Source of the DNA: Eledone cirrhosa
Lineage: Eukaryota
Assembly: GCA_964016885.1 (NCBI GenBank)
Contig: OZ024744.1
Span: forward strand, 125,984,001-126,048,000
Direction of reading: 5' to 3'
Length of the DNA: 64,000 nt
Shown here in pieces: positions 17,381-50,287 of this stretch. A model generated the notes under the pieces. The model did not search any database. It was not told where the DNA came from and saw only the letters and a program-made list of their open reading frames with translations. Made by a program: the position numbers and the translations under genes. Position 1 is the stretch's first letter. Every line of letters starts with the position of its first letter.

Positions 17381-17384
17381 TTGA

Positions 17385-20300: not shown

Positions 20301-21775
20301 ACGAGACATTCGTATGCGAAAGAACGTTTGTCTGGAAGTGGCGATCCATGCCCGGTGGATAGTTGGTTCCGGGTTTTACTATGATTGTTGCAAAACAGAA
20401 ACTTAAAGGGATTGACAGAATTTGCCATTCCGGAGAGGGGGCGATCCGTCTGCTTGATTCCGATAACGAACGAGACATTCGTATCCGAAAGAACGTTTGT
20501 CTGGAAACTGGTGAGTCAGTGAGTCGAAAAAAAAATATCTCGGTGGTAGTAGCAAATATTCGTATGCGTAAGAAAAGATCTCGGTGGTAGTAGCAAATAT
20601 TCGAACGAGACATTCGTATTCGAAAGAACGTTTGTCTGGAAGTTGCGATCCATGCCCGGTGGATAGTTGGTTCCGGGCTTTACTATGATTGTTGCAAAAC
20701 AGAAACTTAAAGGGATTGACAGAATTTGCGATTCCGGAGAGGGGGCGATCCGTCTGCTTGATTTCGATAACGAACGAGACATTCGTATCCGAAAGAACGT
20801 TTGTCTGGAAACTGGTGAGTCAGTGAGTCGAAAAAAAAAATATCTCGGTGGTAGTAGCAAATATTCGAACGAGACATTCGTATGCGAAAGAACGTTTGTC
20901 GGTGGTAGTAGCAAATATTCGAACGAGACATTCGTATGCGAAAGAACGTTTGTCGGTGGTAGTAGCAAATATTCGAACGAGACATTCGTATGCGAAAGAA
21001 CGTTTGTCTGGAAGTGGCGATCCATGCCCGGTGGATAGTTGGTTCCGGGTTTTACTATGATTGTTGCAAAACAGAAACTTAAAGGGATTGACAGAATTTG
21101 CGATTCCAGAGAGAGGGCGATCCGTCTGCTTGATTCCGATAACGAACGAGACATTCGTATCCGAAAGAACGTTTGTCTGGAAACTGGTGAATCAGTGAGT
21201 CGAAAAAAAAATATCTCGGTGGTAGTAGCAAATATTCGAACGAGACATTCGTATGCGAAAGAACGTTTGTCGGTGGTAGTAGCAAATATTCGAACGAGAC
21301 ATTCGTATGCGAAAGAACGTTTGTCTGGAAGTGGCGATCCATGCCCGGTGGATAGTTGGTTCCGGGTTTTACTATGATTGTTGCAAAACAAAAACTTAAA
21401 GGGATTGACAGAATTTGCGATTCCGGAGAGGGGGCGATCCGTCTGCTTGATTCCGATAACGAACGAGACATTCGTATCCGAAAGAACGTTTGTCTGGAAA
21501 CTGGTGAGTCAGTGAGTCGAAAAAAAAATATCTCGGTGGTAGTAGCAAATATTCGTATGCGAAAGAAAAGATCTCGGTGGTAGTAGCAAATATTCGAACG
21601 AGACATTCGTATGCGAAAGAAAAATATCTCGGTGGTAGTAGCAAATATTCGAACGAGACATTCGTATTCGAAAGAACGTTTGTCTGGAAGTTGCGATCCA
21701 TGCCCGGTGGATAGTTGGTTCCGGGCTTTACTATGATTGTTGCAAAACAGAAACTTAAAGGAATTGACAGAATTT
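17385..21775 (+). repeat. rRNA-mosaic satellite: ~12 units of ~300-520 bp with a variable number of internal 54/55-bp subrepeats
   Basis: Units contain 18S motifs (cgattccggagag, ttccgataacgaacgagac, gaaacttaaagg(g/a)attgac) and the 28S motif atctcggtggtagtagcaaatattcgaacgaga. Unit markers at 17639, 18052, 18369, 18836, 19153, 19673, 20045, 20363, 20667, 21039, 21356 and ~21715. Confidence 0.92.
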
Positions 21776-21789
21776 TCGAATCGACATCA

Positions 21790-22165
21790 ACTCGGCTACG
21801 GCTATCCCGTCGAGTACGAGAGTATCGCGGGATCAGAGCAACGGTTTGCTAGGCTGCCTCTGAGCGATAACGGCTGAACGCCTCCTCTAAGCCGGAACCC
21901 TAGCCGGACCCGAGTTGTTTTTCGACAAGCGTCTCGACCTTCTTAAGGCCCATGCCTTAGTTTGGCGATTGCCGTCCGTTCGCCGACGGCGGCAGCGTCA
22001 GCGGAAATGCCATTCTGTGACGACTACGACGATTCGTCGTCGTCGTCGTCCATTCGATTTCCTGAAAGAGATAGAGACTAAAGTGATCAAATTGTTCGGA
22101 GTTACGTGCTTAGTAGAGCAGCTACCACACTGCAATCTATTGAGAGTTTTCTGACGAACGATACA
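21790..22165 (+). pseudogene. 28S rRNA 3' end fragment, including a sarcin-ricin-loop-like hairpin
   Basis: AGTACGAGAG in a paired stem at 21804-21833; ggctgaacgcct(cct)ctaagcc at ~21872; tagtagagcagctacc...ctgcaatctattgaga at 22111-22146, like the LSU 3' terminal helix. Confidence 0.85.
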
Positions 22166-22545
22166 ATCCGCCCACGTGGCGCCAGAAAGGGAGAAGAAAA
22201 GAAAAGTTAGACGCCGCCGATCGATCGGTTCGTTGTTTTACGTGTACACAGCTTGTGTGTGTGTCTGTATGTGATACAAGCCGCCTATCCGTCTTCCAAG
22301 TAAGTTTTGTGTGTAGACTGCGGAAAGAAATCCAATCCGCCGTCTAGGCGGTTCTGCCGCCGACCCATACTTTTGCGAGTCGCTCCCGGGAAAGACAGGC
22401 GGCAAGACGGCGTGTATACACGACGCCTTCCGTCTTCCGCCTCGAACCCGGGCAAACGTTCCTTTATTCGTCCACGCCTTCCCGCTTCGATCGCGAGAAA
22501 GTAATCAATCTGTTTTGTGTGTGTGTCTGTGTGTGATACAAATTT
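22165..22545 (+). other. 3' ETS/spacer-like GC-rich segment
   Basis: CpG-rich sequence directly downstream of the 28S 3' end, with duplicated tgtgtgtgtgtctgt.tgtgatacaa (~22254, ~22516). Positional assignment. Confidence 0.45.
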
Positions 22546-22699
22546 GTTTTCTTAATTTGATAACCATGAATTGTTTCAACACCGGCCCTTTTAAGGGCCA
22601 CTTATATTTTCAATAATCAGTTTAAATGGGTTGCACCGTAGCCACTTGGTAATACACTGCAAATCTCCCGTCAATCTATGAAGGTTTTGTAGTAGATTA

Positions 22700-23025
22700 G
22701 ATCAAAACACAATCAGCAAGACAGTAATGGAATGAATAATATAAACATTTGTTTATAATTAAAGCCTTAAGATGTCCCTCCCTCCCTCCCTTCCTCCCTT
22801 CCTTCCTTCCTTCCTTCCTTCCTTACGATATACACTTTAATAACATTGAAACTTATTTAATAAGTTTAAATTTTAAACACTTTTTATTCAGACGTACCGC
22901 GATAAGTAACTAGATATGTTCTAACGAATAATCCGCGATGTGGCGAGGATTACCGCGATAGGAAATTAGATACGTTCCAAAGAAATATCCGCGAAAAGTG
23001 AACCGCGATATAGCGGGTTCACCAG
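22700..23025. mobile_element. Possible Tigger/pogo-like MITE remnant
   Basis: Repeated ccgcga(t/a) motifs ending in gaaccgcgatatagcg, reminiscent of Tigger-type ends. No partner TIR found. Confidence 0.3.
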
Positions 23026-23580
23026 CCAGTGTATTACTGGTACTTTATTTTATCGACCCCCATAAGGATGAAAGGCAAAGTTAACTGTGCAATAACAAAG
23101 GGAGATAACCTCGTCTTTTTTTTTTTACGGAGTTATTTCCCTTTAAATTTTATCTATTACTTATGATGATACAATTTAATCAGTTCTTAGCTGTCGAGAC
23201 ACTGCATCCTTTAAAACCTCCATGGAACAAGCTACCTGCAACAGTTGTTAGCTGTCGAGACACTGCATCTTTTAAAACCTCCATGGAACAAACTACCTGC
23301 ATCAGTTGTTAGGGTCTGAGTTCAAATCACGCCGAGGAGGTTAACTTTGCCTTTCATCCTTACGGGGTCGGTCGGAAAACGAACCATTCCCGGTTCGCTT
23401 TCGAAGCGGGTTTCCGAAAACAGCGCTTCTCTCGACCGGGCCCGTCGTCCGCTCGGCGGTGGTTTTCATCGTCCCAGGCACGGCTAACAGGCGGAGACGG
23501 GACAAACGCGCGTGTTCCTTTTTTTATCAGCCGCAGCGCCGTTCGTATATATGCTTAGGTTGTTTTTTTTTTAAATATCC

Positions 23581-23810
23581 TAAGTTAAGTTGGGGCTAAG
23601 TTAAGTTGGGGCTAAGTTAAGTTGAGGTTAAGTTGAGTTGGGGTTAAGTTAAGTGGGGGTTAAGTTAAGCTGGGGTTAAGTTAAGTTGAGGTTAAGTTAA
23701 GTTGGGGTTAAGTCAAGTTGGGGTTAAGTTAAGTTGGGGTTAAGTTAGGTTGGGGTTAAGTTAGGTTGGGGTTAAGTTAAGTTGGGGTTAAGTTAGGTTG
23801 CGGTTAAGTT
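23581..23810 (+). repeat. G-rich 16-bp tandem repeat (GGGGTTAAGTTAAGTT)n, telomere-like, ~14 copies
   Basis: taagttaagttggggt(t/c) repeated, with ttagg variants. Confidence 0.9.
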
Positions 23811-26800
23811 ACATTCGCCGCCGGACTTCAGCTTCCTCATTTAGCATGGGCAGTTTTTCTTGAAAATCACACCACACACAGCAAATGTGTGTCCGCACAT
23901 GTACCAGTAATTACAGATCGATTCCGGTGAAAATTCACTGAAAACGGGCCATCCGGCCCTGTGCGTCGATCGTGGGCCGGCCGGATGTTGACGGATCGAT
24001 GTGTAATTAGAAGTACATGTGCGGACACTCATTGGCTGTGCGTGGTATGCATTTCAGCAAGATATCTCCGTAACATCAAGAGTTATGGCTGTGGAGGCAC
24101 ACCTAGTCAAACGTAAACAAGGTCTGGAGCGTTTACGCTTCGCGATTTTGTTTACGTTTGACTAGGTGTGCCTCCACAGCCACAACTCTTGATGTTACGG
24201 AGATATCTTGCTGAAATGCATACCGCGCACAGCCAATGAGTGTCCGCACATGTACTTCTAATTACACATCGATCCGTCAACATCCGGCCGGCCCACGATC
24301 GACGCACAGGGCCGGATGGCCCGTTTTCAGTGAATTTTCAACGGAATCGATCTGTAATTACTGGTACATGTGCGGAGACACATTTGCTGTGTGTGGTGTG
24401 ATTTTCAAGAAAAACTGCCCATGCTAAATGAGGAAGCTGAAGTCCGCCGGCGAATGGTGTGCTTCGAAGAAAACTAATTCGAAAATGACCGTTTGCAGGC
24501 GGAGTAACCTTTTCGATCGTGGGCCAGCCGCCCGTGGTGGGATCCATCTGTAATTACTGGTACATGTGCGGACATACATTTGCTGTGTGTGGTGTGATTT
24601 TCAAGAAGAACTGCCCATGCTAAATGAGGAAGCTGAAGTCCGCCGGCGAATGGTGTGCTTCGAAGAAAACTAATTCGAAAATGACCGTTTGCAGGCGGGG
24701 TAACCTTTTCGATCGTGGGCCAGCCGCCCGTGGTGGGATCCATCTGTAATTACTGGTACATGTGCGGACACACATTTGCTGTGTGTGGTGTGATTTTCGA
24801 GAAAGACTGCCCATGCTAAATGAGGAAGCTGAAGTCCGCCGGCGAATGGTGTGCTTCGAAGAAAACTAATTCGAAAATGACTATTTGCCGGCGGAATCAC
24901 CTTTTCGGTCCTGGTCCGGCCGGATCTTGCCGGATCGATCGGAAATTTGTGGACCATGTTCGGAAGGCCATTGTGCATGTGTGGTGAAAAAAATTTGTGT
25001 CGAAATCTTCTCGGAAAATAACGGATCGCCGGCGGAGATTGCCATTTCGATCGTGGGCCGGCCGGATCTTGTCGGATCGATTCGGACATATGTGCATCGT
25101 GTTCGCAAGGCCCTTGTCTATGTGTGGTGTGATTTTCATAAAGAAATTCCGAAAAACCCAGTTTTAAATCTGATTTCGCCAAAGAATTTTGGCTATCAGA
25201 TCGGGTTGAAAGGTATGGTTTCAGGTCGATCTGAAAGTCTAAAATGGAATTCACTCGGTTAGCTAACTATTGATATATCGGAGATATCTTTCTGAAAATC
25301 ACACCACACACTCCCAATGAGTGTCTGCACATGTACCAGTAATTACAGATGGATCCCACCACGGGCGGCCGGCCCACGATCGAAAAGGTTACTCCGAAGC
25401 ACACCATTCGCCGGCGGAATTCATTTAGCATGGGCAGTTTTTCTCGAAAATCACACCACACACAGCCAATGAGTGTCCGCACATGTACCAGTAATTACAG
25501 ATGGATCCCACCACGGGCGGCTGGCCCACGATCGAAAAGGTTACTCCGCCTGCAAACGGTCATTTTCGAATTAGTTTTCTTCGAAGCACACCATTCGCCG
25601 GCGGACTTCAGCTTCCTCATTTAGCATGGGCAGTTTTTCTCGAAAATCACACCACACACAGCAAATGTGTGTCCGCACATGTACCAGTAATTACAGATCG
25701 ATTCCGGTGAAAATTCACTGAAAACGGGCCATTCTGCCCTGTGCGTCGATCGTGGGCCGGCCGGATGTTGACGGATCGATGTGTAATTAGAAGTACATGT
25801 GCGGACACTCATTGGCTGTGCGTGGTATGCATTTCAGCAAGATATCTCCGTAACATCAAGAGTTATGGCTGTGGAGGCACACTTAGTCAAACGTAAACAA
25901 GCTCTGGAGCGTATACGCTTCGCGATTTTGTTTACGTTTGACTAGGTGTGCCTCCACAGCCACAACTCTTGATGTTACGGAGATATCTTGCTGAAATGCA
26001 TACCACGCACAGCCAATGAGTGTCCGCACATGTACTTCTAATTACACATCGATCCGTCAACATCCGGCCGGCCCACGATCGACGCACAGGGCCGGATGGC
26101 CCGTTTTCAGTGAATTTTCACCGGAATCGATCTGTAATTACTGGTACATGTGCGGACACACATTTGCTGTGTGTGGTGTGATTTTCACGAAAAACTGCCC
26201 ATGCTAAATGAGGAAGCTGAAGTCCGCCGGCGAATGGTGTGCTTCGAAGAAAACTAATTCGAAAATGACCGTTTGCAGGCGGAGTAACCTTTTCGATCGT
26301 GGGCCAGCCGCCCGTGGTGGGATACATCTGTAATTACTGGTACATGTGCGGACACACATTTGCTGTGTGTGGTGTGATTTTCGAGAAAGACTGCCCATGC
26401 TAAATGAGGAAGCTGAAGTCCGCCGGCGAATGGTGTGCTTCGAAGAAAACTAATTCGAAAATGACTATTTGCCGGCGGAATCACCTTTTCGGTCCTGGTC
26501 CGGCCGGATCTTGCCGGATCGATCGGAAATTTGTGGACCATGTTCGGAAGGCCATTGTGCATGTGTGGTGAAAAAAATTTGTGTCGAAATCTTCTCGGAA
26601 AATAACGGATCGCCGGCGGAGATTGCCATTTCGATCGTGGGCCGGCCGGATCTTGTCGGATCGATTCGGACATATGTGCATCGTGTTCGCAAGGCCCTTG
26701 TCTATGTGTGGTGTGATTTTCATAAAGAAATTCCGAAAAACCCAGTTTTAAATCTGATTTCGCCAAAGAATTTTGGCTATCAGATCGGGTTGAAAGGTAT

Positions 26801-29800
26801 GGTTTCAGGTCGATCTGAAAGTCTAAAATGGAATTCACTCGGTTAGCTAACTATTGATATATCGGAGATATCTTTCTGAAAATCACACCACACACTCCCA
26901 ATGAGTGTCTGCACATGTACCAGTAATTACAGATGGATCCCACCACGGGCGGCCGGCCCACGATCGAAAAGGTTACTCCGAAGCACACCATTCGCCGGCG
27001 GAATTCATTTAGCATGGGCAGTTTTTCTCGAAAATCACACCACACACAGCCAAAGAGTGTCCGCACATGTACCAGTAATTACAGATGGATCCCACCACGG
27101 GCGGCTGGCCCACGATCGAAAAGGTTACTCCGCCTGCAAACGGTCATTTTCGAATTAGTTTTCTTCGAAGCACACCATTCGCCGGCGGACTTCAGCTTCC
27201 TCATTTAGCATGGGCAGTTTTTCTCGAAAATCACACCACACACAGCAAATGTGTGTCCGCACATGTACCAGTAATTACAGATCGATTCCGGTGAAAATTC
27301 ACTGAAAACGGGCCATTCTGCCCTGTGCGTCGATCGTGGGCCGGCCGGATGTTGACGGATCGATGTGTAATTAGAAGTACATGTGCGGACACTCATTGGC
27401 TGTGCGTGGTATGCATTTCAGCAAGATATCTCCGTAACATCAAGAGTTATGGCTGTGGAGGCACACCTAGTCAAACGTAAACAAGCTCTGGAGCGTATAC
27501 GCTTCGCGATTTTGTTTACGTTTGACTAGGTGTGCCTCCACAGCCACAACTCTTGATGTTACGGAGATATCTTGCTGAAATGCATACCACGCACAGCCAA
27601 TGAGTGTCCGCACATGTACTTCTAATTACACATCGATCCGTCAACATCCGGCCGGCCCACGATCGACGCACAGGGCCGGATGGCCCGTTTTCAGTGAATT
27701 TTCACCGGAATCGATCTGTAATTACTGGTACATGTGCGGACACACATTTGCTGTGTGTGGTGTGATTTTCACGAAAAACTGCCCATGCTAAATGAGGAAG
27801 CTGAAGTCCGCCGGCGAATGGTGTGCTTCGAAGAAAACTAATTCGAAAATGACCGTTTGCAGGCGGAGTAACCTTTTCGATCGTGGGCCAGCCGCCCGTG
27901 GTGGGATCCATCTGTAATTACTGGTACATGTGCGGACACACATTTGCTGTGTGTGGTGTGATTTTCGAGAAAGACTGCCCATGCTAAATGAGGAAGCTGA
28001 AGTCCGCCGGCGAATGGTGTGCTTGGAAGAAAACTAATTCGAAAATGACTATTTGCCGGCGGAATCACCTTTTCGGTCCTGGTCCGGCCGGATCTTGCCG
28101 GATCGATCGGAAATTTGTGGACCATGTTCGGAAGGCCATTGTGCATGTGTGGTGAAAAAAATTTGTGTCGAAATCTTCTCGGAAAATAACGGATCGCCGG
28201 CGGAGATTGCCATTTCGATCGTGGGCCGGCCGGATCTTGTCGGATCGATTCGGACATATGTGCATCGTGTTCGCAAGGCCCTTGTCTATGTGTGGTGTGA
28301 TTTTCATAAAGAAATTCCGAAAAACCCAGTTTTAAATCTGATTTCGCCAAAGAATTTTGGCTATCAGATCGGGTTGAAAGGTATGGTTTCAGGTCGATCT
28401 GAAAGTCTAAAATGGAATTCACTCGGTTAGCTAACTATTGATATTTCGGAGATATCTTTCTGAAAATCACACCACACACTCCCAATGAGTGTCTGCACAT
28501 GTACCAGTAATTACAGATGGATCCCACCAAGGGCGGCCGGCCCACGATCGAAAAGGTTACTCCGAAGCACACCATTCGCCGGCCGAATTCATTTAGCATG
28601 GGCAGTTTTTCTCGAAAATCACACCACACACAGCCAATGAGTGTCCGCACATGTACCAGTAATTACAGATGGATCCCACCACGGGCGGCTGGCCCACGAT
28701 CGAAAAGGTTACTCCGCCTGCAAACGGTCATTTTCGAATTCGTTTTCTTCGAAGCACACGATTCGCCGGCGGACTTCAGCTGCCTCATTTAGCATGGGCA
28801 GTTTTTCTCGAAAATCACACCACACACAGCAAATGTGTGTCCGCACATGTACCAGTAATTACAGATCGATTCCGGTGAAAATTCACTGAAAACGGGCCAT
28901 TCGGCCCTGTGCGTCGATCGTGGGCCGGCCGGATGTTGACGGATCGATGTGTAATTAGAAGTACATGTGCGGACACTCATTGGCTGTGCGTGGTATGCAT
29001 TTCAGCAAGATATCTCCGTAACATCAAGAGTTATGGCTGTGGAGGCACACCTAGTCAAACGTAAACAAGCTCTGGAGCGTATACGCTTCGCGATTTTGTT
29101 TACGTTTGACTAGGTGTGCCTCCACAGCCACAACTCTTGATGTTACGGAGATATCTTGCTGAAATGCATACCACGCACAGCCAATGAGTGTCCGCACATG
29201 TACTTCTAATTACACATCGATCCGTCAACATCCGGCCGGCCCACGATCGACGCACAGGGCCGGATGGCCCGTTTTCAGTGAATTTTCACCGGAATCGATC
29301 TGTAATTACTGGTACATGTGCGGACACACATTTGCTGTGTGTGGTGTGATTTTCACGAAAAACTGCCCATGCTAAATGAGGAAGCTGAAGTCCGCCGGCG
29401 AATGGTGTGCTTCGAAGAAAACTAATTCGAAAATGACCGTTTGCAGGCGGAGTAACCTTTTCGATCGTGGGCCAGCCGCCCGTGGTGGGATACATCTGTA
29501 ATTACTGGTACATGTGCGGACACACATTTGCTGTGTGTGGTGTGATTTTCGAGAAAGACTGCCCATGCTAAATGAGGAAGCTGAAGTCCGCCGGCGAATG
29601 GTGTGCTTCGAAGAAAACTAATTCGAAAATGACTATTTGCCGGCGGAATCACCTTTTCGGTCCTGGTCCGGCCGGATCTTGCCGGATCGATCGGAAATTT
29701 GTGGACCATGTTCGGAAGGCCATTGTGCATGTGTGATGAAAAAAATTTGTGTCGAAATCTTCTCGGAAAATAACGGATCGCCGGCGGAGATTGCCATTTC

Positions 29801-32800
29801 GATCGTGGGCCGGCCGGATCTTGTCGGATCGATTCGGACATATGTGCATCGTGTTCGCAAGGCCCTTGTCTATGTGTGGTGTGATTTTCATAAAGAAATT
29901 CCGAAAAACCCAGTTTTAAATCTGATTTCGCCAAAGAATTTTGGCTATCAGATCGGGTTGAAAGGTATGGTTTCAGGTCGATCTGAAAGTCTAAAATGGA
30001 ATTCACTCGGTTAGCTAACTTTTGATATATCGGAGATATCTTTCTGAAAATCACACCACACACTCCCAATGAGTGTCTGCACATGTACCAGTAATTACAG
30101 ATGGATCCCACCACGGGCGGCCGGCCCACGATCGAAAAGGTTACTCCGAAGCACACCATTCGCCGGCGGAATTCATTTAGCATGGGCAGTTTTTCTCGAA
30201 AATCACACCACACACAGCCAATGAGTGTCCGCACATGTACCAGTAATTACAGATGGATCCCACCACGGGCGGCTGGCCCACGATCGAAAAGGTTACTCCG
30301 CCTGCAAACGGTCATTTTCGAATTAGTTTTCTTCGAAGCACACCATTCGCCGGCGGACTTCAGCTTCCTCATTTAGCATGGGCAGTTTTTCTTGAAAATC
30401 ACACCACACACAGCAAATGTGTGTCCGCACATGTACCAGTAATTACAGATCGATTCCGGTGAAAATTCACTGAAAACGGGCCATTCGGCCCTGTGCGTCG
30501 ATCGTGGGCCGGCCGGATGTTGACGGATCGATGTGTAATTAGAAGTACATGTGCGGACACTCATTGGCTGTGCGCGGTATGCATTTCAGCAAGATATCTC
30601 CGTAACATCAAGAGTTATGGCTGTGGAGGCACACCTAGTCAAACGTAAACAAGGTCTGGAGCGTTTACGCTTCGCGATTTTGTTTACGTTTGACTAGGTG
30701 TGCCTCCACAGCCACAACTCTTGATGTTACGGAGATATCTTGCTGAAATGCATACCGCGCACAGCCAATGAGTGTCCGCACATGTACTTCTAATTACACA
30801 TCGATCCGTCAACATCCGGCCGGCCCACGATCTACGCACAGGGCCGGATGGCCCGTTTTCAGTGAATTCTCACCGGAATCGATCTGTAATTACTGGTACA
30901 TGTGCGGAGACACATTTGCTGTGTGTGGTGTGATTTTCAAGAAAAACTGCCCATGCTAAATGAGGAAGCTGAAGTCCGCCGGCGAATGGTGTGCTTCGAA
31001 GAAAACTAATTCGAAAATGACCGTTTGCAGGCGGAGTAACCTTTTCGATCGTGGGCCAGCCGCCCGTGGTGGGATCCATCTGTAATTACTGGTACATGTG
31101 CGGACATACATTTGCTGTGTGCGGTGTGATTTTCAAGAAGAACTGCCCATGCTAAATGAGGAAGCTGAAGTCCGCCGGCGAATGGTGTGCTTCGAAGAAA
31201 ACTAATTCGAAAATGACCGTTTGCAGGCGGGGTAACCTTTTCGATCGTGGGCCAGCCGCCCGTGGTGGGATCCATCTGTAATTACTGGTACATGTGCGGA
31301 CACACATTTGCTGTGTGTGGTGTGATTTTCGAGAAAGACTGCCCATGCTAAATGAGGAAGCTGAAGTCCGCCGGCGAATGGTGTGCTTCGAAGAAAACTA
31401 ATTCGAAAATGACTATTTGCCGGCGGAATCACCTTTTCGGTCCTGGTCCGGCCGGATCTTGCCGGATCGATCGGAAATTTGTGGACCATGTTCGGAAGGC
31501 CATTGTGCATGTGTGGTGAAAAAAATTTGTGTCGAAATCTTCTCGGAAAATAACGGATCGCCGGCGGAGATTGCCATTTCGATCGTGGGCCGGCCGGATC
31601 TTGTCGGATCGATTCGGACATATGTGCATCGTGTTCGCAAGGCCCTTGTCTATGTGTGGTGTGATTTTCATAAAGAAATTCCGAAAAACCCAGTTTTAAA
31701 TCTGATTTCGCCAAAGAATTTTGGCTATCAGATCGGGTTGAAAGGTATGGTTTCAGGTCGATCTGAAAGTCTAAAATGGAATTCATTCGGTTAGCTAACT
31801 ATTGATATATCGGAGATATCTTTCTGAAAATCACACCACACACTCCCAATGAGTGTCTGCACATGTACCAGTAATTACAGATGGATCCCACCACGGGCGG
31901 CCGGCCCACGATCGAAAAGGTTACTCCGAAGCACACCATTCGCCGGCGGAATTCATTTAGCATGGGCAGTTTTTCTCGAAAATCACACCACACACAGCCA
32001 ATGAGTGTCCGCACATGTACCAGTAATTACAGATGGATCCCACCACGGGCGGCTGGCCCACGATCGAAAAGGTTACTCCGCCTGCAAACGGTCATTTTCG
32101 AATTCGTTTTCTTCGAAGCACACGATTCGCCGGCGGACTTCAGCTGCCTCATTTAGCATGGGCAGTTTTTCTCGAAAATCACACCACACACAGCAAATGT
32201 GTGTCCGCACATGTACCAGTAATTACAGATCGATTCCGGTGAAAATTCACTGAAAACGGGCCATTCGGCCCTGTGCGTCGATCGTGGGCCGGCCGGATGT
32301 TGACGGATCGATGTGTAATTAGAAGTACATGTGCGGACACTCATTGGCTGTGCGTGGTATGCATTTCAGCAAGATATCTCCGTAACATCAAGAGTTATGG
32401 CTGTGGAGGCACACCTAGTCAAACGTAAACAAGCTCTGGAGCGTATACGCTTCGCGATTTTGTTTACGTTTGACTAGGTGTGCCTCCACAGCCACAACTC
32501 TTGATGTTACGGAGATATCTTGCTGAAATGCATACCACGCACAGCCAATGAGTGTCCGCACATGTACTTCTAATTACACATCGATCCGTCAACATCCGGC
32601 CGGCCCACGATCGACGCACAGGGCCGGATGGCCCGTTTTCAGTGAATTTTCACCGGAATCGATCTGTAATTACTGGTACATGTGCGGACACACATTTGCT
32701 GTGTGTGGTGTGATTTTCACGAAAAACTGCCCATGCTAAATGAGGAAGCTGAAGTCCGCCGGCGAATGGTGTGCTTCGAAGAAAACTAATTCGAAAATGA

Positions 32801-35800
32801 CCGTTTGCAGGCGGAGTAACCTTTTCGATCGTGGGCCAGCCGCCCGTGGTGGGATACATCTGTAATTACTGGTACATGTGCGGACCCACATTTGCTGTGT
32901 GTGGTGTGATTTTCGAGAAAGACTGCCCATGCTAAATGAGGAAGCTGAAGTCCGCCGGCGAATGGTGTGCTTCGAAGAAAACTAATTCGAAAATGACTAT
33001 TTGCCGGCGGAATCACCTTTTCGGTCCTGGTCCGGCCGGATCTTGCCGGATCGATCGGAAATTTGTGGACCATGTTCGGAAGGCCATTGTGCATGTGTGA
33101 TGAAAAAAATTTGTGTCGAAATCTTCTCGGAAAATAACGGATCGCCGGCGGAGATTGCCATTTCGATCGTGGGCCGGCCGGATCTTGTCGGATCGATTCG
33201 GACATATGTGCATCGTGTTCGCAAGGCCCTTGTCTATGTGTGGTGTGATTTTCATAAAGAAATTCCGAAAAACCCAGTTTTAAATCTGATTTCGCCAAAG
33301 AATTTTGGGTATCAGATCGGGTTGAAAGGTATGGTTTCAGGTCGATCTGAAAGTCTAAAATGGAATTCACTCGGTTAGCTAACTTTTGATATATCGGAGA
33401 TATCTTTCTGAAAATCACACCACACACTCCCAATGAGTGTCTGCACATGTACCAGTAATTACAGATGGATCCCACCACGGGCGGCCGGCCCACGATCGAA
33501 AAGGTTACTCCGAAGCACACCATTCGCCGGCGGAATTCATTTAGCATGGGCAGTTTTTCTCGAAAATCACACCACACACAGCCAAAGAGTGTCCGCACAT
33601 GTACCAGTAATTACAGATGGATCCCACCACGGGCGGCTGGCCCACGATCGAAAAGGTTACTCCGCCTGCAAACGGTCATTTTCGAATTAGTTTTCTTCGA
33701 AGCACACCATTCGCCGGCGGACTTCAGCTTCCTCATTTAGCATGGGCAGTTTTTCTCGAAAATCACACCACACACAGCAAATGTGTGTCCGCACATGTAC
33801 CAGTAATTACAGATCGATTCCGGTGAAAATTCACTGAAAACGGGCCATTCTGCCCTGTGCGTCGATCGTGGGCCGGCCGGATGTTGACGGATCGATGTGT
33901 AATTAGAAGTACATGTGCGGACACTCATTGGCTGTGCGTGGTATGCATTTCAGCAAGATATCTCCGTAACATCAAGAGTTATGGCTGTGGAGGCACACCT
34001 AGTCAAACGTAAACAAGCTCTGGAGCGTATACGCTTCGCGATTTTGTTTACGTTTGACTAGGTGTGCCTCCACAGCCACAACTCTTGATGTTACGGAGAT
34101 ATCTTGCTGAAATGCATACCACGCACAGCCAATGAGTGTCCGCACATGTACTTCTAATTACACATCGATCCGTCAACATCCGGCCGGCCCACGATCGACG
34201 CACAGGGCCGGATGGCCCGTTTTCAGTGAATTTTCACCGGAATCGATCTGTAATTACTGGTACATGTGCGGACACACATTTGCTGTGTGTGGTGTGATTT
34301 TCACGAAAAACTGCCCATGCTAAATGAGGAAGCTGAAGTCCGCCGGCGAATGGTGTGCTTCGAAGAAAACTAATTCGAAAATGACCGTTTGCAGGCGGAG
34401 TAACCTTTTCGATCGTGGGCCAGCCGCCCGTGGTGGGATCCATCTGTAATTACTGGTACATGTGCGGACACACATTTGCTGTGTGTGGTGTGATTTTCGA
34501 GAAAGACTGCCCATGCTAAATGAGGAAGCTGAAGTCCGCCGGCGAATGGTGTGCTTGGAAGAAAACTAATTCGAAAATGACTATTTGCCGGCGGAATCAC
34601 CTTTTCGGTCCTGGTCCGGCCGGATCTTGCCGGATCGATCGGAAATTTGTGGACCATGTTCGGAAGGCCATTGTGCATGTGTGGTGAAAAAAATTTGTGT
34701 CGAAATCTTCTCGGAAAATAACGGATCGCCGGCGGAGATTGCCATTTCGATCGTGGGCCGGCCGGATCTTGTCGGATCGATTCGGACATATGTGCATCGT
34801 GTTCGCAAGGCCCTTGTCTATGTGTGGTGTGATTTTCATAAAGAAATTCCGAAAAACCCAGTTTTAAATCTGATTTCGCCAAAGAATTTTGGCTATCAGA
34901 TCGGGTTGAAAGGTATGGTTTCAGGTCGATCTGAAAGTCTAAAATGGAATTCACTCGGTTAGCTAACTATTGATATTTCGGAGATATCTTTCTGAAAATC
35001 ACACCACACACTCCCAATGAGTGTCTGCACATGTACCAGTAATTACAGATGGATCCCACCACGGGCGGCCGGCCCACGATCGAAAAGGTTACTCCGAAGC
35101 ACACCATTCGCCGGCCGAATTCATTTAGCATGGGCAGTTTTTCTCGAAAATCACACCACACACAGCCAATGAGTGTCCGCACATGTACCAGTAATTACAG
35201 ATGGATCCCACCACGGGCGGCTGGCCCACGATCGAAAAGGTTACTCCGCCTGCAAACGGTCATTTTCGAATTCGTTTTCTTCGAAGCACACGATTCGCCG
35301 GCGGACTTCAGCTGCCTCATTTAGCATGGGCAGTTTTTCTCGAAAATCACACCACACACAGCAAATGTGTGTCCGCACATGTACCAGTAATTACAGATCG
35401 ATTCCGGTGAAAATTCACTGAAAACGGGCCATTCGGCCCTGTGCGTCGATCGTGGGCCGGCCGGATGTTGACGGATCGATGTGTAATTAGAAGTACATGT
35501 GCGGACACTCATTGGCTGTGCGTGGTATGCATTTCAGCAAGATATCTCCGTAACATCAAGAGTTATGGCTGTGGAGGCACACCTAGTCAAACGTAAACAA
35601 GCTCTGGAGCGTATACGCTTCGCGATTTTGTTTACGTTTGACTAGGTGTGCCTCCACAGCCACAACTCTTGATGTTACGGAGATATCTTGCTGAAATGCA
35701 TACCACGCACAGCCAATGAGTGTCCGCACATGTACTTCTAATTACACATCGATCCGTCAACATCCGGCCGGCCCACGATCGACGCACAGGGCCGGATGGC

Positions 35801-38800
35801 CCGTTTTCAGTGAATTTTCACCGGAATCGATCTGTAATTACTGGTACATGTGCGGACACACATTTGCTGTGTGTGGTGTGATTTTCACGAAAAACTGCCC
35901 ATGCTAAATGAGGAAGCTGAATTCCGCCGGCGAATGGTGTGCTTCGAAGAAAACTAATTCGAAAATGACCGTTTGCAGGCGGAGTAACCTTTTCGATCGT
36001 GGGCCAGCCGCCCGTGGTGGGATACATCTGTAATTACTGGTACATGTGCGGACACACATTTGCTGTGTGTGGTGTGATTTTCGAGAAAGACTGCCCATGC
36101 TAAATGAGGAAGCTGAAGTCCGCCGGCGAATGGTGTGCTTCGAAGAAAACTAATTCGAAAATGACTATTTGCCGGCGGAATCACCTTTTCGGTCCTGGTC
36201 CGGCCGGATCTTGCCGGATCGATCGGAAATTTGTGGACCATGTTCGGAAGGCCATTGTGCATGTGTGATGAAAAAAATTTGTGTCGAAATCTTCTCGGAA
36301 AATAACGGATCGCCGGCGGAGATTGCCATTTCGATCGTGGGCCGGCCGGATCTTGTCGGATCGATTCGGACATATGTGCATCGTGTTCGCAAGGCCCTTG
36401 TCTATGTGTGGTGTGATTTTCATAAAGAAATTCCGAAAAACCCAGTTTTAAATCTGATTTCGCCAAAGAATTTTGGCTATCAGATCGGGTTGAAAGGTAT
36501 GGTTTCAGGTCGATCTGAAAGTCTAAAATGGAATTCACTCGGTTAGCTAACTATTGATATTTCGGAGATATCTTTCTGAAAATCACACCACACACTCCCA
36601 ATGAGTGTCTGCACATGTACCAGTAATTACAGATGGATCCCACCACGGGCGGCCGGCCCACGATCGAAAAGGTTACTCCGAAGCACACCATTCGCCGGCG
36701 GAATTCATTTAGCATGGGCAGTTTTTCTCGAAAATCACACCACACACAGCCAATGAGTGTCCGCACATGTACCAGTAATTACAGATGGATCCCACCACGG
36801 GCGGCTGGCCCACGATCGAAAAGGTTACTCCGCCTGCAAACGGTCATTTTCGAATTCGTTTTCTTCGAAGCACACGATTCGCCGGCGGACTTCAGCTGCC
36901 TCATTTAGCATGGGCAGTTTTTCTCGAAAATCACACCACACACAGCAAATGTGTGTCCGCACATGTACCAGTAATTACAGATCGATTCCGGTGAAAATTC
37001 ACTGAAAACGGGCCATTCGGCCCTGTGCGTCGATCGTGGGCCGGCCGGATGTTGACGGATCGATGTGTAATTAGAAGTACATGTGTGGACACTCATTGGC
37101 TGTGCGTGGTATGCATTTCAGCAAGATATCTCCGTAACATCAAGAGTTATGGCTGTGGAGGCACACCTAGTCAAACGTAAACAAGCTCTGGAGCGTATAC
37201 GCTTCGCGATTTTGTTTACGTTTGACTAGGTGTGCCTCCACAGCCACAACTCTTGATGTTACGGAGATATCTTGCTGAAATGCATACCACGCACAGCCAA
37301 TGAGTGTCCGCACATGTACTTCTAATTACACATCGATCCGTCAACATCCGGCCGGCCCACGATCGACGCACAGGGCCGGATGGCCCGTTTTCAGTGAATT
37401 TTCACCGGAATCGATCTGTAATTACTGGTACATGTGCGGACACACATTTGCTGTGTGTGGTGTGATTTTCACGAAAAACTGCCCATGCTAAATGAGGAAG
37501 CTGAAGTCCGCCGGCGAATGGTGTGCTTCGAAGAAAACTAATTCGAAAATGACCGTTTGCAGGCGGAGTAACCTTTTCGATCGTGGGCCAGCCGCCCGTG
37601 GTGGGATACATCTGTAATTACTGGTACATGTGCGGACACACATTTGCTGTGTGTGGTGTGATTTTCGAGAAAGACTGCCCATGCTAAATGAGGAAGCTGA
37701 AGTCCGCCGGCGAATGGTGTGCTTCGAAGAAAACTAATTCGAAAATGACTATTTGCCGGCGGAATCACCTTTTCGGTCCTGGTCCGGCCGGATCTTGCCG
37801 GATCGATCGGAAATTTGTGGACCATGTTCGGAAGGCCATTGTGCATGTGTGATGAAAAAAATTTGTGTCGAAATCTTCTCGGAAAATAACGGATCGCCGG
37901 CGGAGATTGCCATTTCGATCGTGGGCCGGCCGGATCTTGTCGGATCGATTCGGACATATGTGCATCGTGTTCGCAAGGCCCTTGTCTATGTGTGGTGTGA
38001 TTTTCATAAAGAAATTCCGAAAAACCCAGTTTTAAATCTGATTTCGCCAAAGAATTTTGGCTATCAGATCGGGTTGAAAGGTATGGTTTCAGGTCGATCT
38101 GAAAGTCTAAAATGGAATTCACTCGGTTAGCTAACTTTTGATATATCGGAGATATCTTTCTGAAAATCACACCACACACTCCCAATGAGTGTCTGCACAT
38201 GTACCAGTAATTACAGATGGATCCCACCACGGGCGGCCGGCCCACGATCGAAAAGGTTACTCCGAAGCACACCATTCGCCGGCGGAATTCATTTAGCATG
38301 GGCAGTTTTTCTCGAAAATCACACCACACACAGCCAATGAGTGTCCGCACATGTACCAGTAATTACAGATGGATCCCACCACGGGCGGCTGGCCCACGAT
38401 CGAAAAGGTTACTCCGCCTGCAAACGGTCATTTTCGAATTAGTTTTCTTCGAAGCACACCATTCGCCGGCGGACTTCAGCTTCCTCATTTAGCATGGGCA
38501 GTTTTTCTTGAAAATCACACCACACACAGCAAATGTGTGTCCGCACATGTACCAGTAATTACAGATCGATTCCGGTGAAAATTCACTGAAAACGGGCCAT
38601 TCGGCCCTGTGCGTCGATCGTGGGCCGGCCGGATGTTGACGGATCGATGTGTAATTAGAAGTACATGTGCGGACACTCATTGGCTGTGCGCGGTATGCAT
38701 TTCAGCAAGATATCTCCGTAACATCAAGAGTTATGGCTGTGGAGGCACACCTAGTCAAACGTAAACAAGGTCTGGAGCGTTTACGCTTCGCGATTTTGTT

Positions 38801-41800
38801 TACGTTTGACTAGGTGTGCCTCCACAGCCACAACTCTTGATGTTACGGAGATATCTTGCTGAAATGCATACCGCGCACAGCCAATGAGTGTCCGCACATG
38901 TACTTCTAATTACACATCGATCCGTCAACATCCGGCCGGCCCACGATCTACGCACAGGGCCGGATGGCCCGTTTTCAGTGAATTCTCACCGGAATCGATC
39001 TGTAATTACTGGTACATGTGCGGAGACACATTTGCTGTGTGTGGTGTGATTTTCAAGAAAAACTGCCCATGCTAAATGAGGAAGCTGAAGTCCGCCGGCG
39101 AATGGTGTGCTTCGAAGAAAACTAATTCGAAAATGACCGTTTGCAGGCGGAGTAACCTTTTCGATCGTGGGCCAGCCGCCCGTGGTGGGATCCATCTGTA
39201 ATTACTGGTACATGTGCGGACATACATTTGCTGTGTGCGGTGTGATTTTCAAGAAGAACTGCCCATGCTAAATGAGGAAGCTGAAGTCCGCCGGCGAATG
39301 GTGTGCTTCGAAGAAAACTAATTCGAAAATGACCGTTTGCAGGCGGGGTAACCTTTTCGATCGTGGGCCAGCCGCCCGTGGTGGGATCCATCTGTAATTA
39401 CTGGTACATGTGCGGACACACATTTGCTGTGTGTGGTGTGATTTTCGAGAAAGACTGCCCATGCTAAATGAGGAAGCTGAAGTCCGCCGGCGAATGGTGT
39501 GCTTCGAAGAAAACTAATTCGAAAATGACTATTTGCCGGCGGAATCACCTTTTCGGTCCTGGTCCGGCCGGATCTTGCCGGATCGATCGGAAATTTGTGG
39601 ACCATGTTCGGAAGGCCATTGTGCATGTGTGGTGAAAATAATTTGTGTCGAAATCTTCTCGGAAAATAACGGATCGCCGGCGGAGATTGCCATTTCGATC
39701 GTGGGCCGGCCGGATCTTGTCGGATCGATTCGGACATATGTGCATCGTGTTCGCAAGGCCCTTGTCTATGTGTGGTGTGATTTTCATAAAGAAATTCCGA
39801 AAAACCCAGTTTTAAATCTGATTTCGCCAAAGAATTTTGGCTATCAGATCGGGTTGAAAGGTATGGTTTCAGGTCGATCTGAAAGTCTAAAATGGAATTC
39901 ATTCGGTTAGCTAACTATTGATATATCGGAGATATCTTTCTGAAAATCACACCACACACTCCCAATGAGTGTCTGCACATGTACCAGTAATTACAGATGG
40001 ATCCCACCACGGGCGGCCGGCCCACGATCGAAAAGGTTACTCCGAAGCACACCATTCGCCGGCGGAATTCATTTAGCATGGGCAGTTTTTCTCGAAAATC
40101 ACACCACACACAGCCAATGAGTGTCCGCACATGTACCAGTAATTACAGATGGATCCCACCACGGGCGGCTGGCCCACGATCGAAAAGGTTACTCCGCCTG
40201 CAAACGGTCATTTTCGAATTCGTTTTCTTCGAAGCACACGATTCGCCGGCGGACTTCAGCTGCCTCATTTAGCATGGGCAGTTTTTCTCGAAAATCACAC
40301 CACACACAGCAAATGTGTGTCCGCACATGTACCAGTAATTACAGATCGATTCCGGTGAAAATTCACTGAAAACGGGCCATTCGGCCCTGTGCGTCGATCG
40401 TGGGCCGGCCGGATGTTGACGGATCGATGTGTAATTAGAAGTACATGTGCGGACACTCATTGGCTGTGCGTGGTATGCATTTCAGCAAGATATCTCCGTA
40501 ACATCAAGAGTTATGGCTGTGGAGGCACACCTAGTCAAACGTAAACAAGCTCTGGAGCGTATACGCTTCGCGATTTTGTTTACGTTTGACTAGGTGTGCC
40601 TCCACAGCCACAACTCTTGATGTTACGGAGATATCTTGCTGAAATGCATACCACGCACAGCCAATGAGTGTCCGCACATGTACTTCTAATTACACATCGA
40701 TCCGTCAACATCCGGCCGGCCCACGATCGACGCACAGGGCCGGATGGCCCGTTTTCAGTGAATTTTCACCGGAATCGATCTGTAATTACTGGTACATGTG
40801 CGGACACACATTTGCTGTGTGTGGTGTGATTTTCACGAAAAACTGCCCATGCTAAATGAGGAAGCTGAAGTCCGCCGGCGAATGGTGTGCTTCGAAGAAA
40901 ACTAATTCGAAAATGACCGTTTGCAGGCGGAGTAACCTTTTCGATCGTGGGCCAGCCGCCCGTGGTGGGATACATCTGTAATTACTGGTACATGTGCGGA
41001 CCCACATTTGCTGTGTGTGGTGTGATTTTCGAGAAAGACTGCCCATGCTAAATGAGGAAGCTGAAGTCCGCCGGCGAATGGTGTGCTTCGAAGAAAACTA
41101 ATTCGAAAATGACTATTTGCCGGCGGAATCACCTTTTCGGTCCTGGTCCGGCCGGATCTTGCCGGATCGATCGGAAATTTGTGGACCATGTTCGGAAGGC
41201 CATTGTGCATGTGTGATGAAAAAAATTTGTGTCGAAATCTTCTCGGAAAATAACGGATCGCCGGCGGAGATTGCCATTTCGATCGTGGGCCGGCCGGATC
41301 TTGTCGGATCGATTCGGACATATGTGCATCGTGTTCGCAAGGCCCTTGTCTATGTGTGGTGTGATTTTCATAAAGAAATTCCGAAAAACCCAGTTTTAAA
41401 TCTGATTTCGCCAAAGAATTTTGGGTATCAGATCGGGTTGAAAGGTATGGTTTCAGGTCGATCTGAAAGTCTAAAATGGAATTCACTCGGTTAGCTAACT
41501 TTTGATATATCGGAGATATCTTTCTGAAAATCACACCACACACTCCCAATGAGTGTCTGCACATGTACCAGTAATTACAGATGGATCCCACCACGGGCGG
41601 CCGGCCCACGATCGAAAAGGTTACTCCGAAGCACACCATTCGCCGGCGGAATTCATTTAGCATGGGCAGTTTTTCTCGAAAATCACACCACACACAGCCA
41701 ATGAGTGTCCGCACATGTACCAGTAATTACAGATGGATCCCACCACGGGCGGCTGGCCCACGATCGAAAAGGTTACTCCGCCTGCAAACGGTCATTTTCG

Positions 41801-43872
41801 AATTAGTTTTCTTCGAAGCACACCATTCGCCGGCGGACTTCAGCTTCCTCATTTAGCATGGGCAGTTTTTCTCGAAAATCACACCACACACAGCAAATGT
41901 GTGTCCGCACATGTACCAGTAATTACAGATCGATTCCGGTGAAAATTCACTGAAAACGGGCCATTCTGCCCTGTGCGTCGATCGTGGGCCGGCCGGATGT
42001 TGACGGATCGATGTGTAATTAGAAGTACATGTGCGGACACTCATTGGCTGTGCGTGGTATGCATTTCAGCAAGATATCTCCGTAACATCAAGAGTTATGG
42101 CTGTGGAGGCACACCTAGTCAAACGTAAACAAGCTCTGGAGCGTATACGCTTCGCGATTTTGTTTACGTTTGACTAGGTGTGCCTCCACAGCCACAACTC
42201 TTGATGTTACGGAGATATCTTGCTGAAATGCATACCACGCACAGCCAATGAGTGTCCGCACATGTACTTCTAATTACACATCGATCCGTCAACATCCGGC
42301 CGGCCCACGATCGACGCACAGGGCCGGATGGCCCGTTTTCAGTGAATTTTCACCGGAATCGATCTGTAATTACTGGTACATGTGCGGACACACATTTGCT
42401 GTGTGTGGTGTGATTTTCACGAAAAACTGCCCATGCTAAATGAGGAAGCTGAAGTCCGCCGGCGAATGGTGTGCTTCGAAGAAAACTAATTCGAAAATGA
42501 CCGTTTGCAGGCGGAGTAACCTTTTCGATCGTGGGCCAGCCGCCCGTGGTGGGATACATCTGTAATTACTGGTACATGTGCGGACACACATTTGCTGTGT
42601 GTGGTGTGATTTTCGAGAAAGACTGCCCATGCTAAATGAGGAAGCTGAAGTCCGCCGGCGAATGGTGTGCTTCGAAGAAAACTAATTCGAAAATGACTAT
42701 TTGCCGGCGGAATCACCTTTTCGGTCCTGGTCCGGCCGGATCTTGCCGGATCGATCGGAAATTTGTGGACCATGTTCGGAAGGCCATTGTGCATGTGTGG
42801 TGAAAAAAATTTGTGTCGAAATCTTCTCGGAAAATAACGGATCGCCGGCGGAGATTGCCATTTCGATCGTGGGCCGGCCGGATCTTGTCGGATCGATTCG
42901 GACATATGTGCATCGTGTTCGCAAGGCCCTTGTCTATGTGTGGTGTGATTTTCATAAAGAAATTCCGAAAAACCCAGTTTTAAATCTGATTTCGCCAAAG
43001 AATTTTGGCTATCAGATCGGGTTGAAAGGTATGGTTTCAGGTCGATCTGAAAGTCTAAAATGGAATTCACTCGGTTAGCTAACTTTTGATATATCGGAGA
43101 TATCTTTCTGAAAATCACACCACACACTCCCAATGAGTGTCTGCACATGTACCAGTAATTACAGATGGATCCCACCACGGGCGGCCGGCCCACGATCGAA
43201 AAGGTTACTCCGAAGCACACCATTCGCCGGCGGAATTCATTTAGCATGGGCAGTTTTTCTCGAAAATCACACCACACACAGCCAATGAGTGTCCGCACAT
43301 GTACCAGTAATTACAGATGGATCCCACCACGGGCGGCTGGCCCACGATCGAAAAGGTTACTCCGCCTGCAAACGGTCATTTTCGAATTAGTTTTCTTCGA
43401 AGCACACCATTCGCCGGCGGACTTCAGCTTCCTCATTTAGCATGGGCAGTTTTTCTTGAAAATCACACCACACACAGCAAATGTGTGTCCGCACATGTAC
43501 CAGTAATTACAGATCGATTCCGGTGAAAATTCACTGAAAACGGGCCATTCGGCCCTGTGCGTCGATCGTGGGCCGGCCGGATGTTGACGGATCGATGTGT
43601 AATTAGAAGTACATGTGCGGACACTCATTGGCTGTGCGTGGTATGCATTTCACTAAGATATCTCCGTAACATCAAGAGTTATGGCTGTGGAGGCACACCT
43701 AGTCAAACGTAAACAAGGTCTGGAGCGTTTACGCTTCGCGATTTTGTTTACGTTTGACTAGGTGTGCCTCCACAGCGACAACTCTTGATGTTACGGAGAT
43801 ATCTTGCTGAAATTCATACCACGCACAGCCAATGAGTGTCCGCACATGTACCTGTAATTACACATCGATCCG
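23811..43872. repeat. ~20-kb satellite of 1584/1780-bp foldback units with 13 palindrome centres
   Basis: The marker ORF recurs at 23841, 25621, 27205, 28789, 30373, 32153, 33737, 35321, 36905, 38489, 40269, 41853 and 43437. Mirror ORFs are symmetric about each centre (25501/26327 and 25621/26207 about 25914). Arms are built from 196- and 152-bp subrepeats. Confidence 0.97.
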
Positions 43873-43960
43873 ACGACGGACAGAGTATTCGGTTTATTTT
43901 CTTGACATATTTCTTTACATATTGTCCAGGCATGCACTTTTTCCATGATTAGTTCTGTTG

Positions 43961-44014
43961 ACGGCCCGCTTTCCAAAATACCTTATCCTGTGCAACGCCG
44001 GGTACCACTGCTAG
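43961..44014 (+). mobile_element. Helitron-type 3' terminus
   Basis: GC-rich imperfect hairpin cctgtgcaacgccggg, then taccactgCTAG followed by T and (TA)n. Confidence 0.7.
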
Positions 44015-44409
44015 TATATATATGTGTATGTATATATATATATATATATTGGTAAACGGAATAGAAAATTGTGACAAATTGTTCACAGTGAAAAATAGTT
44101 TAATTAGGAATAAGTGATAATTAGTAATAGTATTGGTTAGTATTAAGTTTTGGTTTTAAGTTTTACCGGTTGCGCATTTCTAATGCTTTTCAAAAATAAT
44201 TTTGAGATAGAGCGTCCGTGATGTTTGCTCTGATCTGTATATATATATATATATATATAGACAAACAGTAGAAAGGAAAAAGATTTTTTCAGTAGAAATT
44301 GCTGAAGAGATTCTTTCAGTGTAATTTCAAAACATTAATTTATTTATAAAGTGGATATTTCCACATTTAATAATGGCACTGGGTTCAGCATTATATACAT
44401 TGTCAATTG

Positions 44410-44745
44410 TGGATTCTACTTTTGGCACAAGGGCTGCAATTATCCAGTACATTACTGGTACTTTATTATTTATACAAATAATAATTGTTTCTACTTTTGG
44501 CACAAGGGCAGCAATTACCCAGTACATTACTGGTACTTTATTATTTATACAAATAATAATTGTTTCTACTTTAGGCACAAGGTCAGCAATTACCCAGTAC
44601 ATTACTGGTACTTTATTATTTATACAAATAATAATTGTTTCTACTTTAGGCACAAGGTCAGCAATTACCCCAGTACTTTATTTTATCGACCCCGTAAGGA
44701 TGAAAGAAAAGTTAACCTCAACGGGATTTGAACTCAGTCTGTAAA
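44410..44745 (-). repeat. 75-bp minisatellite (~3.5 copies) derived from an adjoining SINE
   Basis: ttctactt..ggcacaagg at 44414, 44489, 44564 and 44639, running into the SINE core tttatcgaccccgtaaggatgaaag. Confidence 0.8.

Positions 44746-49301: not shown

Positions 49302-49363
<62 letters not shown>

Positions 49364-50242: not shown

Positions 50243-50287
<45 letters not shown>

Follow-up and report, generated by a model that had tools for sequence, protein, structure and literature searches.

A tandem array of thirteen 1-kb palindromes beside a collapsed ribosomal DNA remnant: a candidate foldback-derived repeat in a contig from Eledone cirrhosa

We analysed a 64,000-nucleotide stretch of DNA from Eledone cirrhosa (assembly GCA_964016885.1, contig OZ024744.1, forward-strand positions 125,984,001 to 126,048,000), here called the window and numbered from its first letter, which carries a 20-kb array of long palindromes. 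BLAST of the window against itself returns 13 strong local inversions in the array, together with 12 weaker ones (about 71% over about 1 kb) lying midway between them. The array and its parts are laid out as follows.

23,812-43,872, no strand assigned: the palindrome array, with 13 centres, 12 complete loop-to-loop monomers and a partial monomer at each edge.
23812-24456, no strand assigned: unit 1, with a left arm of only 309 bp and a flank without microhomology.
24628-25420, forward strand: the long type of spacer, 793 bp, lengthened by an additional 196-bp module; the other two cases lie at 31160-31952 and 39276-40068.
25421-26407, no strand assigned: unit 2, an example palindrome, with 480-bp arms and 10 mismatches (25421-25900 versus 25928-26407).
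25901-25927, forward strand: the centre of unit 2, where the palindrome continues imperfectly up to a 4-nt apex, in one orientation in 13 of 13 units.
25928-27484, no strand assigned: an example foldback-like monomer of 1,557 bp, self-inverted, with eight module copies in both orientations.
43588-43872, no strand assigned: unit 13, with a right arm of only 129 bp and several private variants.

The original prediction, made from the letters of the window, had described thirteen palindromes in 20 kb with the first and last of them truncated, and this picture holds in full, the array beginning a single base away from the start first given. The arms of unit 2 were placed exactly. Two ungapped 480-bp arms with 9-12 mismatches are present in 11 of the 13 palindromes, and the arms are 97.5-98% complementary. 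Centre-to-centre spacings run in the order 1,780, three of 1,584, 1,780, four of 1,584, 1,780 and two of 1,584 bp. The gap between the 480-bp arms is 597 bp, or 793 bp in three of the 12 cases, and these long spacers mark higher-order blocks of 4 and 5 units; the predicted directional spacer of about 400 bp is therefore right in its fixed direction (12 of 12) and wrong in its length. There are no ambiguous N bases in the window, and the observed/expected ratio of CpG is 1.16 in the array versus 0.17-0.20 in its flanks.

The 27-bp loop occurs at all 13 centres and contains the predicted mini-palindrome in its AT and TT forms, which are two linked variants differing at 2 positions, the TT type occupying units 1, 5, 10 and 13. 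Its length was correctly foreseen, but it is not an unpaired loop: in RNA and DNA folds alike it is mostly paired, down to the 4-nt apex, and it therefore reads as a decayed continuation of the palindrome. One palindrome folds as RNA at -972.5 kcal/mol versus -299 +/- 8 in 20 shuffles (z -87). The longest perfect arm has a length of 35 versus 8-10 in 5 shuffles, a control that halts at the first mismatch and hence understates the signal.

When cut at its loops, the monomer is its own reverse complement, with an identity of 94-100% (50-bp bins) over the outer 450 bp and of about 30-80% in the interior. Its first half runs from a unique tip of about 36 bp through one inverted module, two 196-bp modules and two degenerate modules; there follow a centre of about 100 bp, modules in the opposite sense, including a 152-bp deletion variant, and a mirror tip. 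The eight module copies per monomer, of about 120-196 bp, align as a single family, and module orientation changes four times per monomer. Each arm also carries an inverted module copy beside the unique tip of about 36 bp. The 196-bp and 152-bp module spacings that had been predicted for the arms were recovered, the 152-bp variant being confined to the left side, at the outer edge of the arm. The spacer is itself the weaker inverted repeat noted above (about 71% over about 1 kb) and consists mostly of degenerate modules in an orientation fixed in 12 of 12; like the 27-bp loop, it is a palindrome centre that has decayed.

None of the three array open reading frames (ORFs) scanned, of 130-274 aa, matched a Pfam family at E 0.1. 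Rfam returned nothing inside the array either over 15,500-27,600 at E<=1, which takes in its first 3.8 kb, or at gathering level over the whole window, and no tRNA was found in the window. The array unit had no blastn match to plasmids and phages (E 1e-3), and a 26-nt module motif had 0 matches in prokaryotic genome contigs. Derivation of the array from rRNA was considered and rejected, the best match to two reference ribosomal DNAs (rDNAs) being a chance one of 12 bp.

The history of the array can be followed in its variants. Loops and spacers are uniformly oriented (13/13 and 12/12), and in a tree of 12 left and 12 right arms, with the two truncated arms excluded, left and right are split by 1 change with support 92/92. 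Left/right asymmetries are fixed at arm position 36 in 13/13 units and at positions 429 and 434 in 12/12 left arms. Among units 2-12, compared over 1,584 columns with the extra 196-bp module trimmed, units 6 and 11 show 0 differences and the pairs 5/10 and 3/7 show 1 difference each. Taken together, the single orientation, the separate arm groups and the near-identical non-adjacent units indicate that one ancestral palindrome was tandemly amplified, and they argue against both a read artefact and a chain of inversions. Units with long spacers sit at positions 1, 5 and 10 which, with the near-identity of non-adjacent units, points to block duplication. Mean differences per 480 bp are 3.8 between left arms, 4.9 between right arms and 10.7 between left and right within a palindrome, such that an arm differs by 2.2% from its own partner and by 0.8-1.0% from the same arm of other units. 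Divergence of the arms had therefore already set in when the palindrome was amplified, and arm-to-arm copying is slower than tandem homogenisation. Template switching is described as homogenising inverted arms (PMC8604942), and one variant, at arm position 78, is carried by units 5 and 10 on the two arms alike but by unit 1 on the right arm alone, which suggests that copying between arms happened once. Differences between units reach 19 of 987 bases. The variants among units comprise 13 transitions and 20 transversions, and 5 variants are singletons. Two other histories were rejected: a hairpin-ended replicon or breakage-fusion concatemer, as 0/13 loops and 0/12 spacers are inverted, and decay by methylation, as just 3 of 33 variant alleles are of CpG type despite 107 CpG per unit.

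Overall, we lean towards reading the array as selfish, non-coding DNA in which a foldback-type element of about 1.56 kb is repeated in tandem, and host function is unnecessary to explain any observed feature. The monomers stand head to tail, each with long modular inverted ends, and where the right end of one meets the left end of the next a 1-kb palindrome results. A single junction of this kind was multiplied until there were 13; blocks of 4-5 units were duplicated along the way, and a 196-bp module was gained or lost. The monomer may have been a non-autonomous foldback DNA transposon and its modules former transposase-binding repeats; the first dimer could have come from a double insertion or a circle junction, and expansion from unequal exchange or rolling-circle copying, with the present array edges being cuts inside two arms. 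Inverted repeats are described as less stable when their arms are longer and more alike and their spacers shorter, and eukaryotic forks as stalled by 12-bp spacers but not by 52-bp ones (PMC7999016). The imperfect 27-bp centre and the mismatches of about 2% may lower cruciform extrusion enough for the array to persist, while lagging-strand hairpins would remain likely and may feed local rearrangement. The monomer has the long terminal inverted repeats, the tandem modules (an extra one in 3/12 monomers) and the non-coding middle (three ORFs, no Pfam match) typical of foldback elements. Its symmetry peaks at the ends and decays inward, and the modules lie within the inverted ends. The head-to-tail order with one junction type is that of a tandem transposon array, and the tandem complex monomer with long inverted subunits is that of a satellite.

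Several observations weigh against this reading. The original prediction had offered tandem foldback elements with long modular terminal inverted repeats as an alternative, and the anatomy makes that the best fit, but the target-site duplications (TSDs) and solo copies that would accompany it were not found in the window: no TSD was seen at the junctions or array edges, although one of 2-4 bp at the apex could escape notice, and the other 44 kb hold no solo copy or other match to the array unit (E<1). The outermost 13 bp or so of the supposed ends are their least symmetric part. Because of these three features we do not class the monomer as a transposon. To our knowledge its tips match no transposon terminal signature. 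Identity drops abruptly past 480 bp, as a later snap-back duplication would also give. Finally, the signal of similarity across loops is weak (mean 10.7 versus 11.2 differences, permutation p 0.017), and this p value is inflated by the duplicate pair of units 5 and 10, which are not independent.

Known tandem transposons offer partial parallels. Bari1, hobo and P elements have short inverted ends, and their junctions thus lack 1-kb palindromes. As described, their arrays are like ours in consisting of whole elements head to tail with identical junctions and, for Bari1, in having a partial element at the array edge and junctions without TSDs; unlike ours, they have coding interiors (PMC5932611). 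Tetris of Drosophila virilis, as far as it is described in PMC4079207, shares the long inverted ends, an outer flanking domain, a non-coding middle and tandem modules of about 200 bp in variable number (3 versus 4, as against one extra 196-mer in 3/12 here), a likeness of anatomy. However, Tetris has TSDs of 8-10 bp and just its internal module became a satellite (PMC4079207). In our array it is the entire element that recurs in tandem, and TSDs were not found. By such analogy, the kin of the array would be a palindromic satellite of the Tribolium brevicornis type and a tandem array of the Bari1 type.

The ends of the array raise the question of a larger carrier, for which the following features are relevant.

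23578-23811, forward strand: candidate Helitron 5' end (A/TC at 23,578) and a 16-bp minisatellite of 14.4 copies, abutting the array.
43959-44014, forward strand: Helitron-type 3' end, comprising a 16-nt GC-rich imperfect hairpin, 8 nt, CTAG/T and a TA run.
47091-47146, reverse strand: another 3' end from that Helitron-like family, matching the first at 89% over 79 bp with the TA run counted in.

Both edges cut the array within an arm, with no microhomology and no duplication. A mini-hairpin with a 4-bp stem (43869-43880) spans the right edge and may be a hairpin-capping scar or chance. At 44,014, 142 bp past the array, lies the Helitron-type 3' end. Helitron 3' ends are defined as CTRR/T after a GC-rich hairpin of 16-20 nt (PMC2817418), and both elements are found here, the hairpin being imperfect; among all 59 CTAGT sites of the window, just 2 are preceded by a GC-rich hairpin at a distance of 6-10 nt. 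As a structure, this 3' end is well supported. The two 3' ends are homologous over their last 55 bp or so, and their upstream sequences differ. They face each other (43959-44037, forward, and 47068-47146, reverse) across 3.1 kb of CpG-depleted sequence, each with its TA run. The idea that each unit is its own Helitron was discarded, as the CTAGT sites within the array lack a GC-rich hairpin.

We infer that the array goes with the 3' end at 44,014, whose 5' counterpart would be at 23,578. As described, satellite-carrying Helitrons of Crassostrea gigas similarly have a short microsatellite tract, a central tandem array and a conserved 3' box with a hairpin and CTAGT, at similar spacing, but their arrays average about six short direct monomers, unlike the 20 kb of palindromic 1.6-kb units seen here (PMC8268682). 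What tells against the enclosure is the 5' end, a lone A/TC that stands at the start of the minisatellite, is one of 3 ATC sites in 23371-23600, is not common to the second 3' end and is unlike oyster Box 4. The proposal that a non-autonomous Helitron of about 20.4 kb (23,578-44,014) carries the array, and lies within spacer sequence of a collapsed rDNA macro-repeat, is close to evenly balanced.

That macro-repeat is represented in the window by a remnant rDNA unit upstream of the array and by a second copy of the surrounding block.

15907-16837, forward strand: 172-bp tandem repeats, 5.4 copies, upstream of the 18S remnant, in the position of rDNA spacer repeats and presumably of that role.
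17195-17381, forward strand: eukaryotic remnant of the 18S rRNA 5' end (Rfam RF01960, 77.9 bits, E 6e-21).
17388-21782, forward strand: tandem mosaic with 54/317-bp periods and 18S/28S snippets in place of the rRNA body.
21786-22168, forward strand: eukaryotic remnant of the 28S rRNA 3' end (Rfam RF02543, 61.6 bits, E 1e-12), 1.64 kb upstream of the array.
51772-64000, forward strand: second block copy, repeating the block from 6,299 with a period of about 45.5 kb and leaving the window before any second array.

Comparison with a pair of complete rDNA contigs from eukaryotes (2 of 40 loci) breaks the 4.4-kb mosaic down into conserved snippets of 12-35 nt, drawn from three widely separated places in 18S and a single place in 28S, in scrambled order; Rfam on the mosaic alone gave chance snoRNA matches and nothing else. 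It is possibly stranger than the palindrome array. The block copies, in which 6299-21800 corresponds to 51772-64000, are nearly identical, with 6 substitutions in 10,556 columns between 6,299-16,837 and 51,772-62,312, while another part differs by about 1-3%; 1-2,237 matches 48,870-51,126 at 97% identity. Since divergence among array units far exceeds that between block copies, either the array came down together with the block or it entered as one piece of several units that were already diverse. On each view a further array should occur somewhere else; were the array a component of the block, its position would be close to 69.5 kb.

Further observations concern this block. The collapsed rDNA unit recurs in the next block at 62842-64000, the 172-bp repeats are seen again at 61382-62484 (6.4 copies), and a diverged partial copy of the 172-bp repeat and its leader lies about 7 kb further upstream (8960-9800), where it may be spacer-promoter-like. 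To the left of the remnant stands a tract of C-rich, telomere-like hexamers (15817-15910) and to its right the G-rich 16-bp minisatellite (23581-23811), a bracketing that could be chance, element tails or the relic of a linear rDNA piece. An Rfam histone 3' stem-loop at 22579-22623 (36.6 bits, above gathering), with no ATG ORF of at least 50 aa upstream, is probably an orphan or a chance match. A long interspersed element (LINE) on the reverse strand at 2615-5489, with endonuclease and reverse-transcriptase ORFs in different frames, lies between CA/TA microsatellites and is confined to the first block copy. Searched by its reverse transcriptase, it gave best matches of 84% over half the query and 63% near full length, with bird or reptile matches at 33-39%, and a second fragment yielded no candidate. 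The LINE, SINE and microsatellite content points to an animal, and the SINEs suggest an octopus, although a SINE motif sought in the literature gave just 7 unrelated matches. A CpG-rich stretch at 22890-23030, which we take to resemble a pogo/Tigger-type inverted-repeat fragment, stands beside fragments of short interspersed elements (SINEs) in both orientations. Minisatellites at 11869-12975, 44414-44680 and 48315-49076 have periods of 53, 71/142, 75 and 48 bp, the 75-bp unit deriving from a SINE tail. In the sequence collection used for comparison, contigs in bacterial genome records (L005:576-5845 and L015:356-6687) carry eukaryotic 18S-5.8S-28S rDNA, and about 240 stretches match the 28S motif, which points to contamination.

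The main rival to the foldback reading is a palindrome born within a satellite, with no transposon ancestry, in which a module of about 120-196 bp was inverted repeatedly and then amplified as a complex monomer; snap-back synthesis primed at a short central hairpin would have given the 480-bp arms, and the downstream history would be the same. We find this rather doubtful. Four orientation switches per monomer within a single module family, near-perfect symmetry that stops abruptly at 480 bp and the lack of TSDs all speak for it, but the succession of unique tip, modular subterminal zone and degenerate middle is that of a foldback transposon, and no more than 13 copies are seen. Satellite arms in T. 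brevicornis are reportedly much less alike than the 97.5-98% complementarity found here, where symmetry is also nested at four points per monomer. There are nonetheless precedents for a satellite origin in the 1,061-bp monomer of T. brevicornis and in TmSat2 of T. madens: the Tribolium satellites, as described, are tandem monomers of long inversely oriented subunits, with inverted segments of about 470 bp versus 480 bp here, although that of T. brevicornis is a major (peri)centromeric satellite and ours amounts to 13 copies beside an rDNA remnant (PMC13081366). Large palindromes are also described as being seeded by short inverted repeats (PMC7999016). A sequencing or assembly artefact, with fold-back reads or a collapsed or over-expanded repeat, is very improbable. 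Palindromes are a known class of artefact, the 5 singleton variants could be errors and the copy number could still be misassembled, but fixed arm asymmetries, linked loop types, haplotypes shared by non-adjacent units and module copy-number variants are foreign to read fold-back, and the window contains no N.

Two readings would grant the array a function, and to both we give little credence. It could be a structural element, retained for its dyad symmetry, that serves the macro-repeat or the chromosome as a fork barrier, as a stimulator of recombination or as non-B DNA of a centromere-like kind. The array lies downstream of the 28S end, where fork barriers of other eukaryotes are generally placed, and its diversity, so much greater than that of the macro-repeat, could mean that it is an inherited part of the block; dyad symmetries have also been proposed, though not proven, to matter at Tribolium centromeres (PMC13081366). 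On the other hand, the rDNA unit is a non-coding ruin, fragments of mobile elements are strewn through the spacer, and the array matches the 172-bp repeats no better than E 0.66 and shows no similarity to two reference rDNAs. Alternatively, the array could be a functional hairpin-RNA cluster, as the original prediction proposed in naming it a source of hairpin RNA or small interfering RNA (siRNA): thirteen duplexes of about 480 bp, cut by Dicer or edited by ADAR, would silence dispersed relatives, with transcription possibly by read-through from the upstream rDNA-derived unit. The folding it requires is there, and the duplexes are long; the array begins 1.64 kb past the 28S end, the region upstream of which is near-identical between macro-repeat copies, and the high CpG ratio suggests little germline methylation or young age. 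Hairpin-RNA loci are known to form tandem clusters of 9-20 copies, one of which packs 13 into about 27 kb, and hp-CG4068 and hp-tHMG of Drosophila are likewise tandem inverted repeats of variable copy number; these, however, have proven transcripts, Dcr-2-dependent siRNAs and gene targets as described (PMC10317233). The role itself found no support, as the arm mismatches show no G:U or strand bias: among 33 distinct ones, 8 would form G:U pairs on the plus strand, 6 would do so on the minus strand, and the other 19 pair on neither. Selection on an RNA duplex has thus left no sign, in a test of low power for so young an array. Transversions outnumber transitions among the unit variants, both terminal hairpins are cut, and no target of the arms was found in the window, in Pfam or in two reference rDNAs.

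There is a similarly slight chance that the whole block of about 45.5 kb is a selfish rDNA mimic. It would have kept the rDNA upstream region and replaced the 18S-28S body with a mosaic of conserved snippets, such that RNA polymerase I (Pol I) reads through into thirteen 480-bp hairpins, a factory of double-stranded RNA (dsRNA) whose product would be a substrate or sink for Dicer or ADAR. The octopus lineage is marked by extreme A-to-I editing, and if the Pol I factory were real and the animal an octopus, it would sit in that very lineage. Transcription starting in the rDNA remnant, if it occurs, would make the array a large source of dsRNA.

Regardless of its origin, each ingredient of the locus has precedent, while the combination of 480-bp arms at about 98%, nested symmetry, an array of whole monomers, a Helitron-type end and a collapsed rDNA block appears new. 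In the open-access literature searched there was no counterpart to the full combination and no title on a palindromic satellite of cephalopods. A 2026 paper presents inverted segments of about 470 bp as the most prominent intra-monomer dyad symmetry reported (PMC13081366), a length that the array equals, at about 98% identity and 13 times over. The 27-bp, partly paired centre falls between the 12-bp spacers that are described as stalling forks and the 52-bp spacers that are not (PMC7999016), and the array therefore provides a natural test of what central asymmetry contributes to the survival of palindromes in the germline. The unit haplotypes, in turn, serve as a clock for arm-to-arm copying versus tandem exchange. 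In this context, the array may capture a foldback element in the course of becoming a satellite inside a Helitron.

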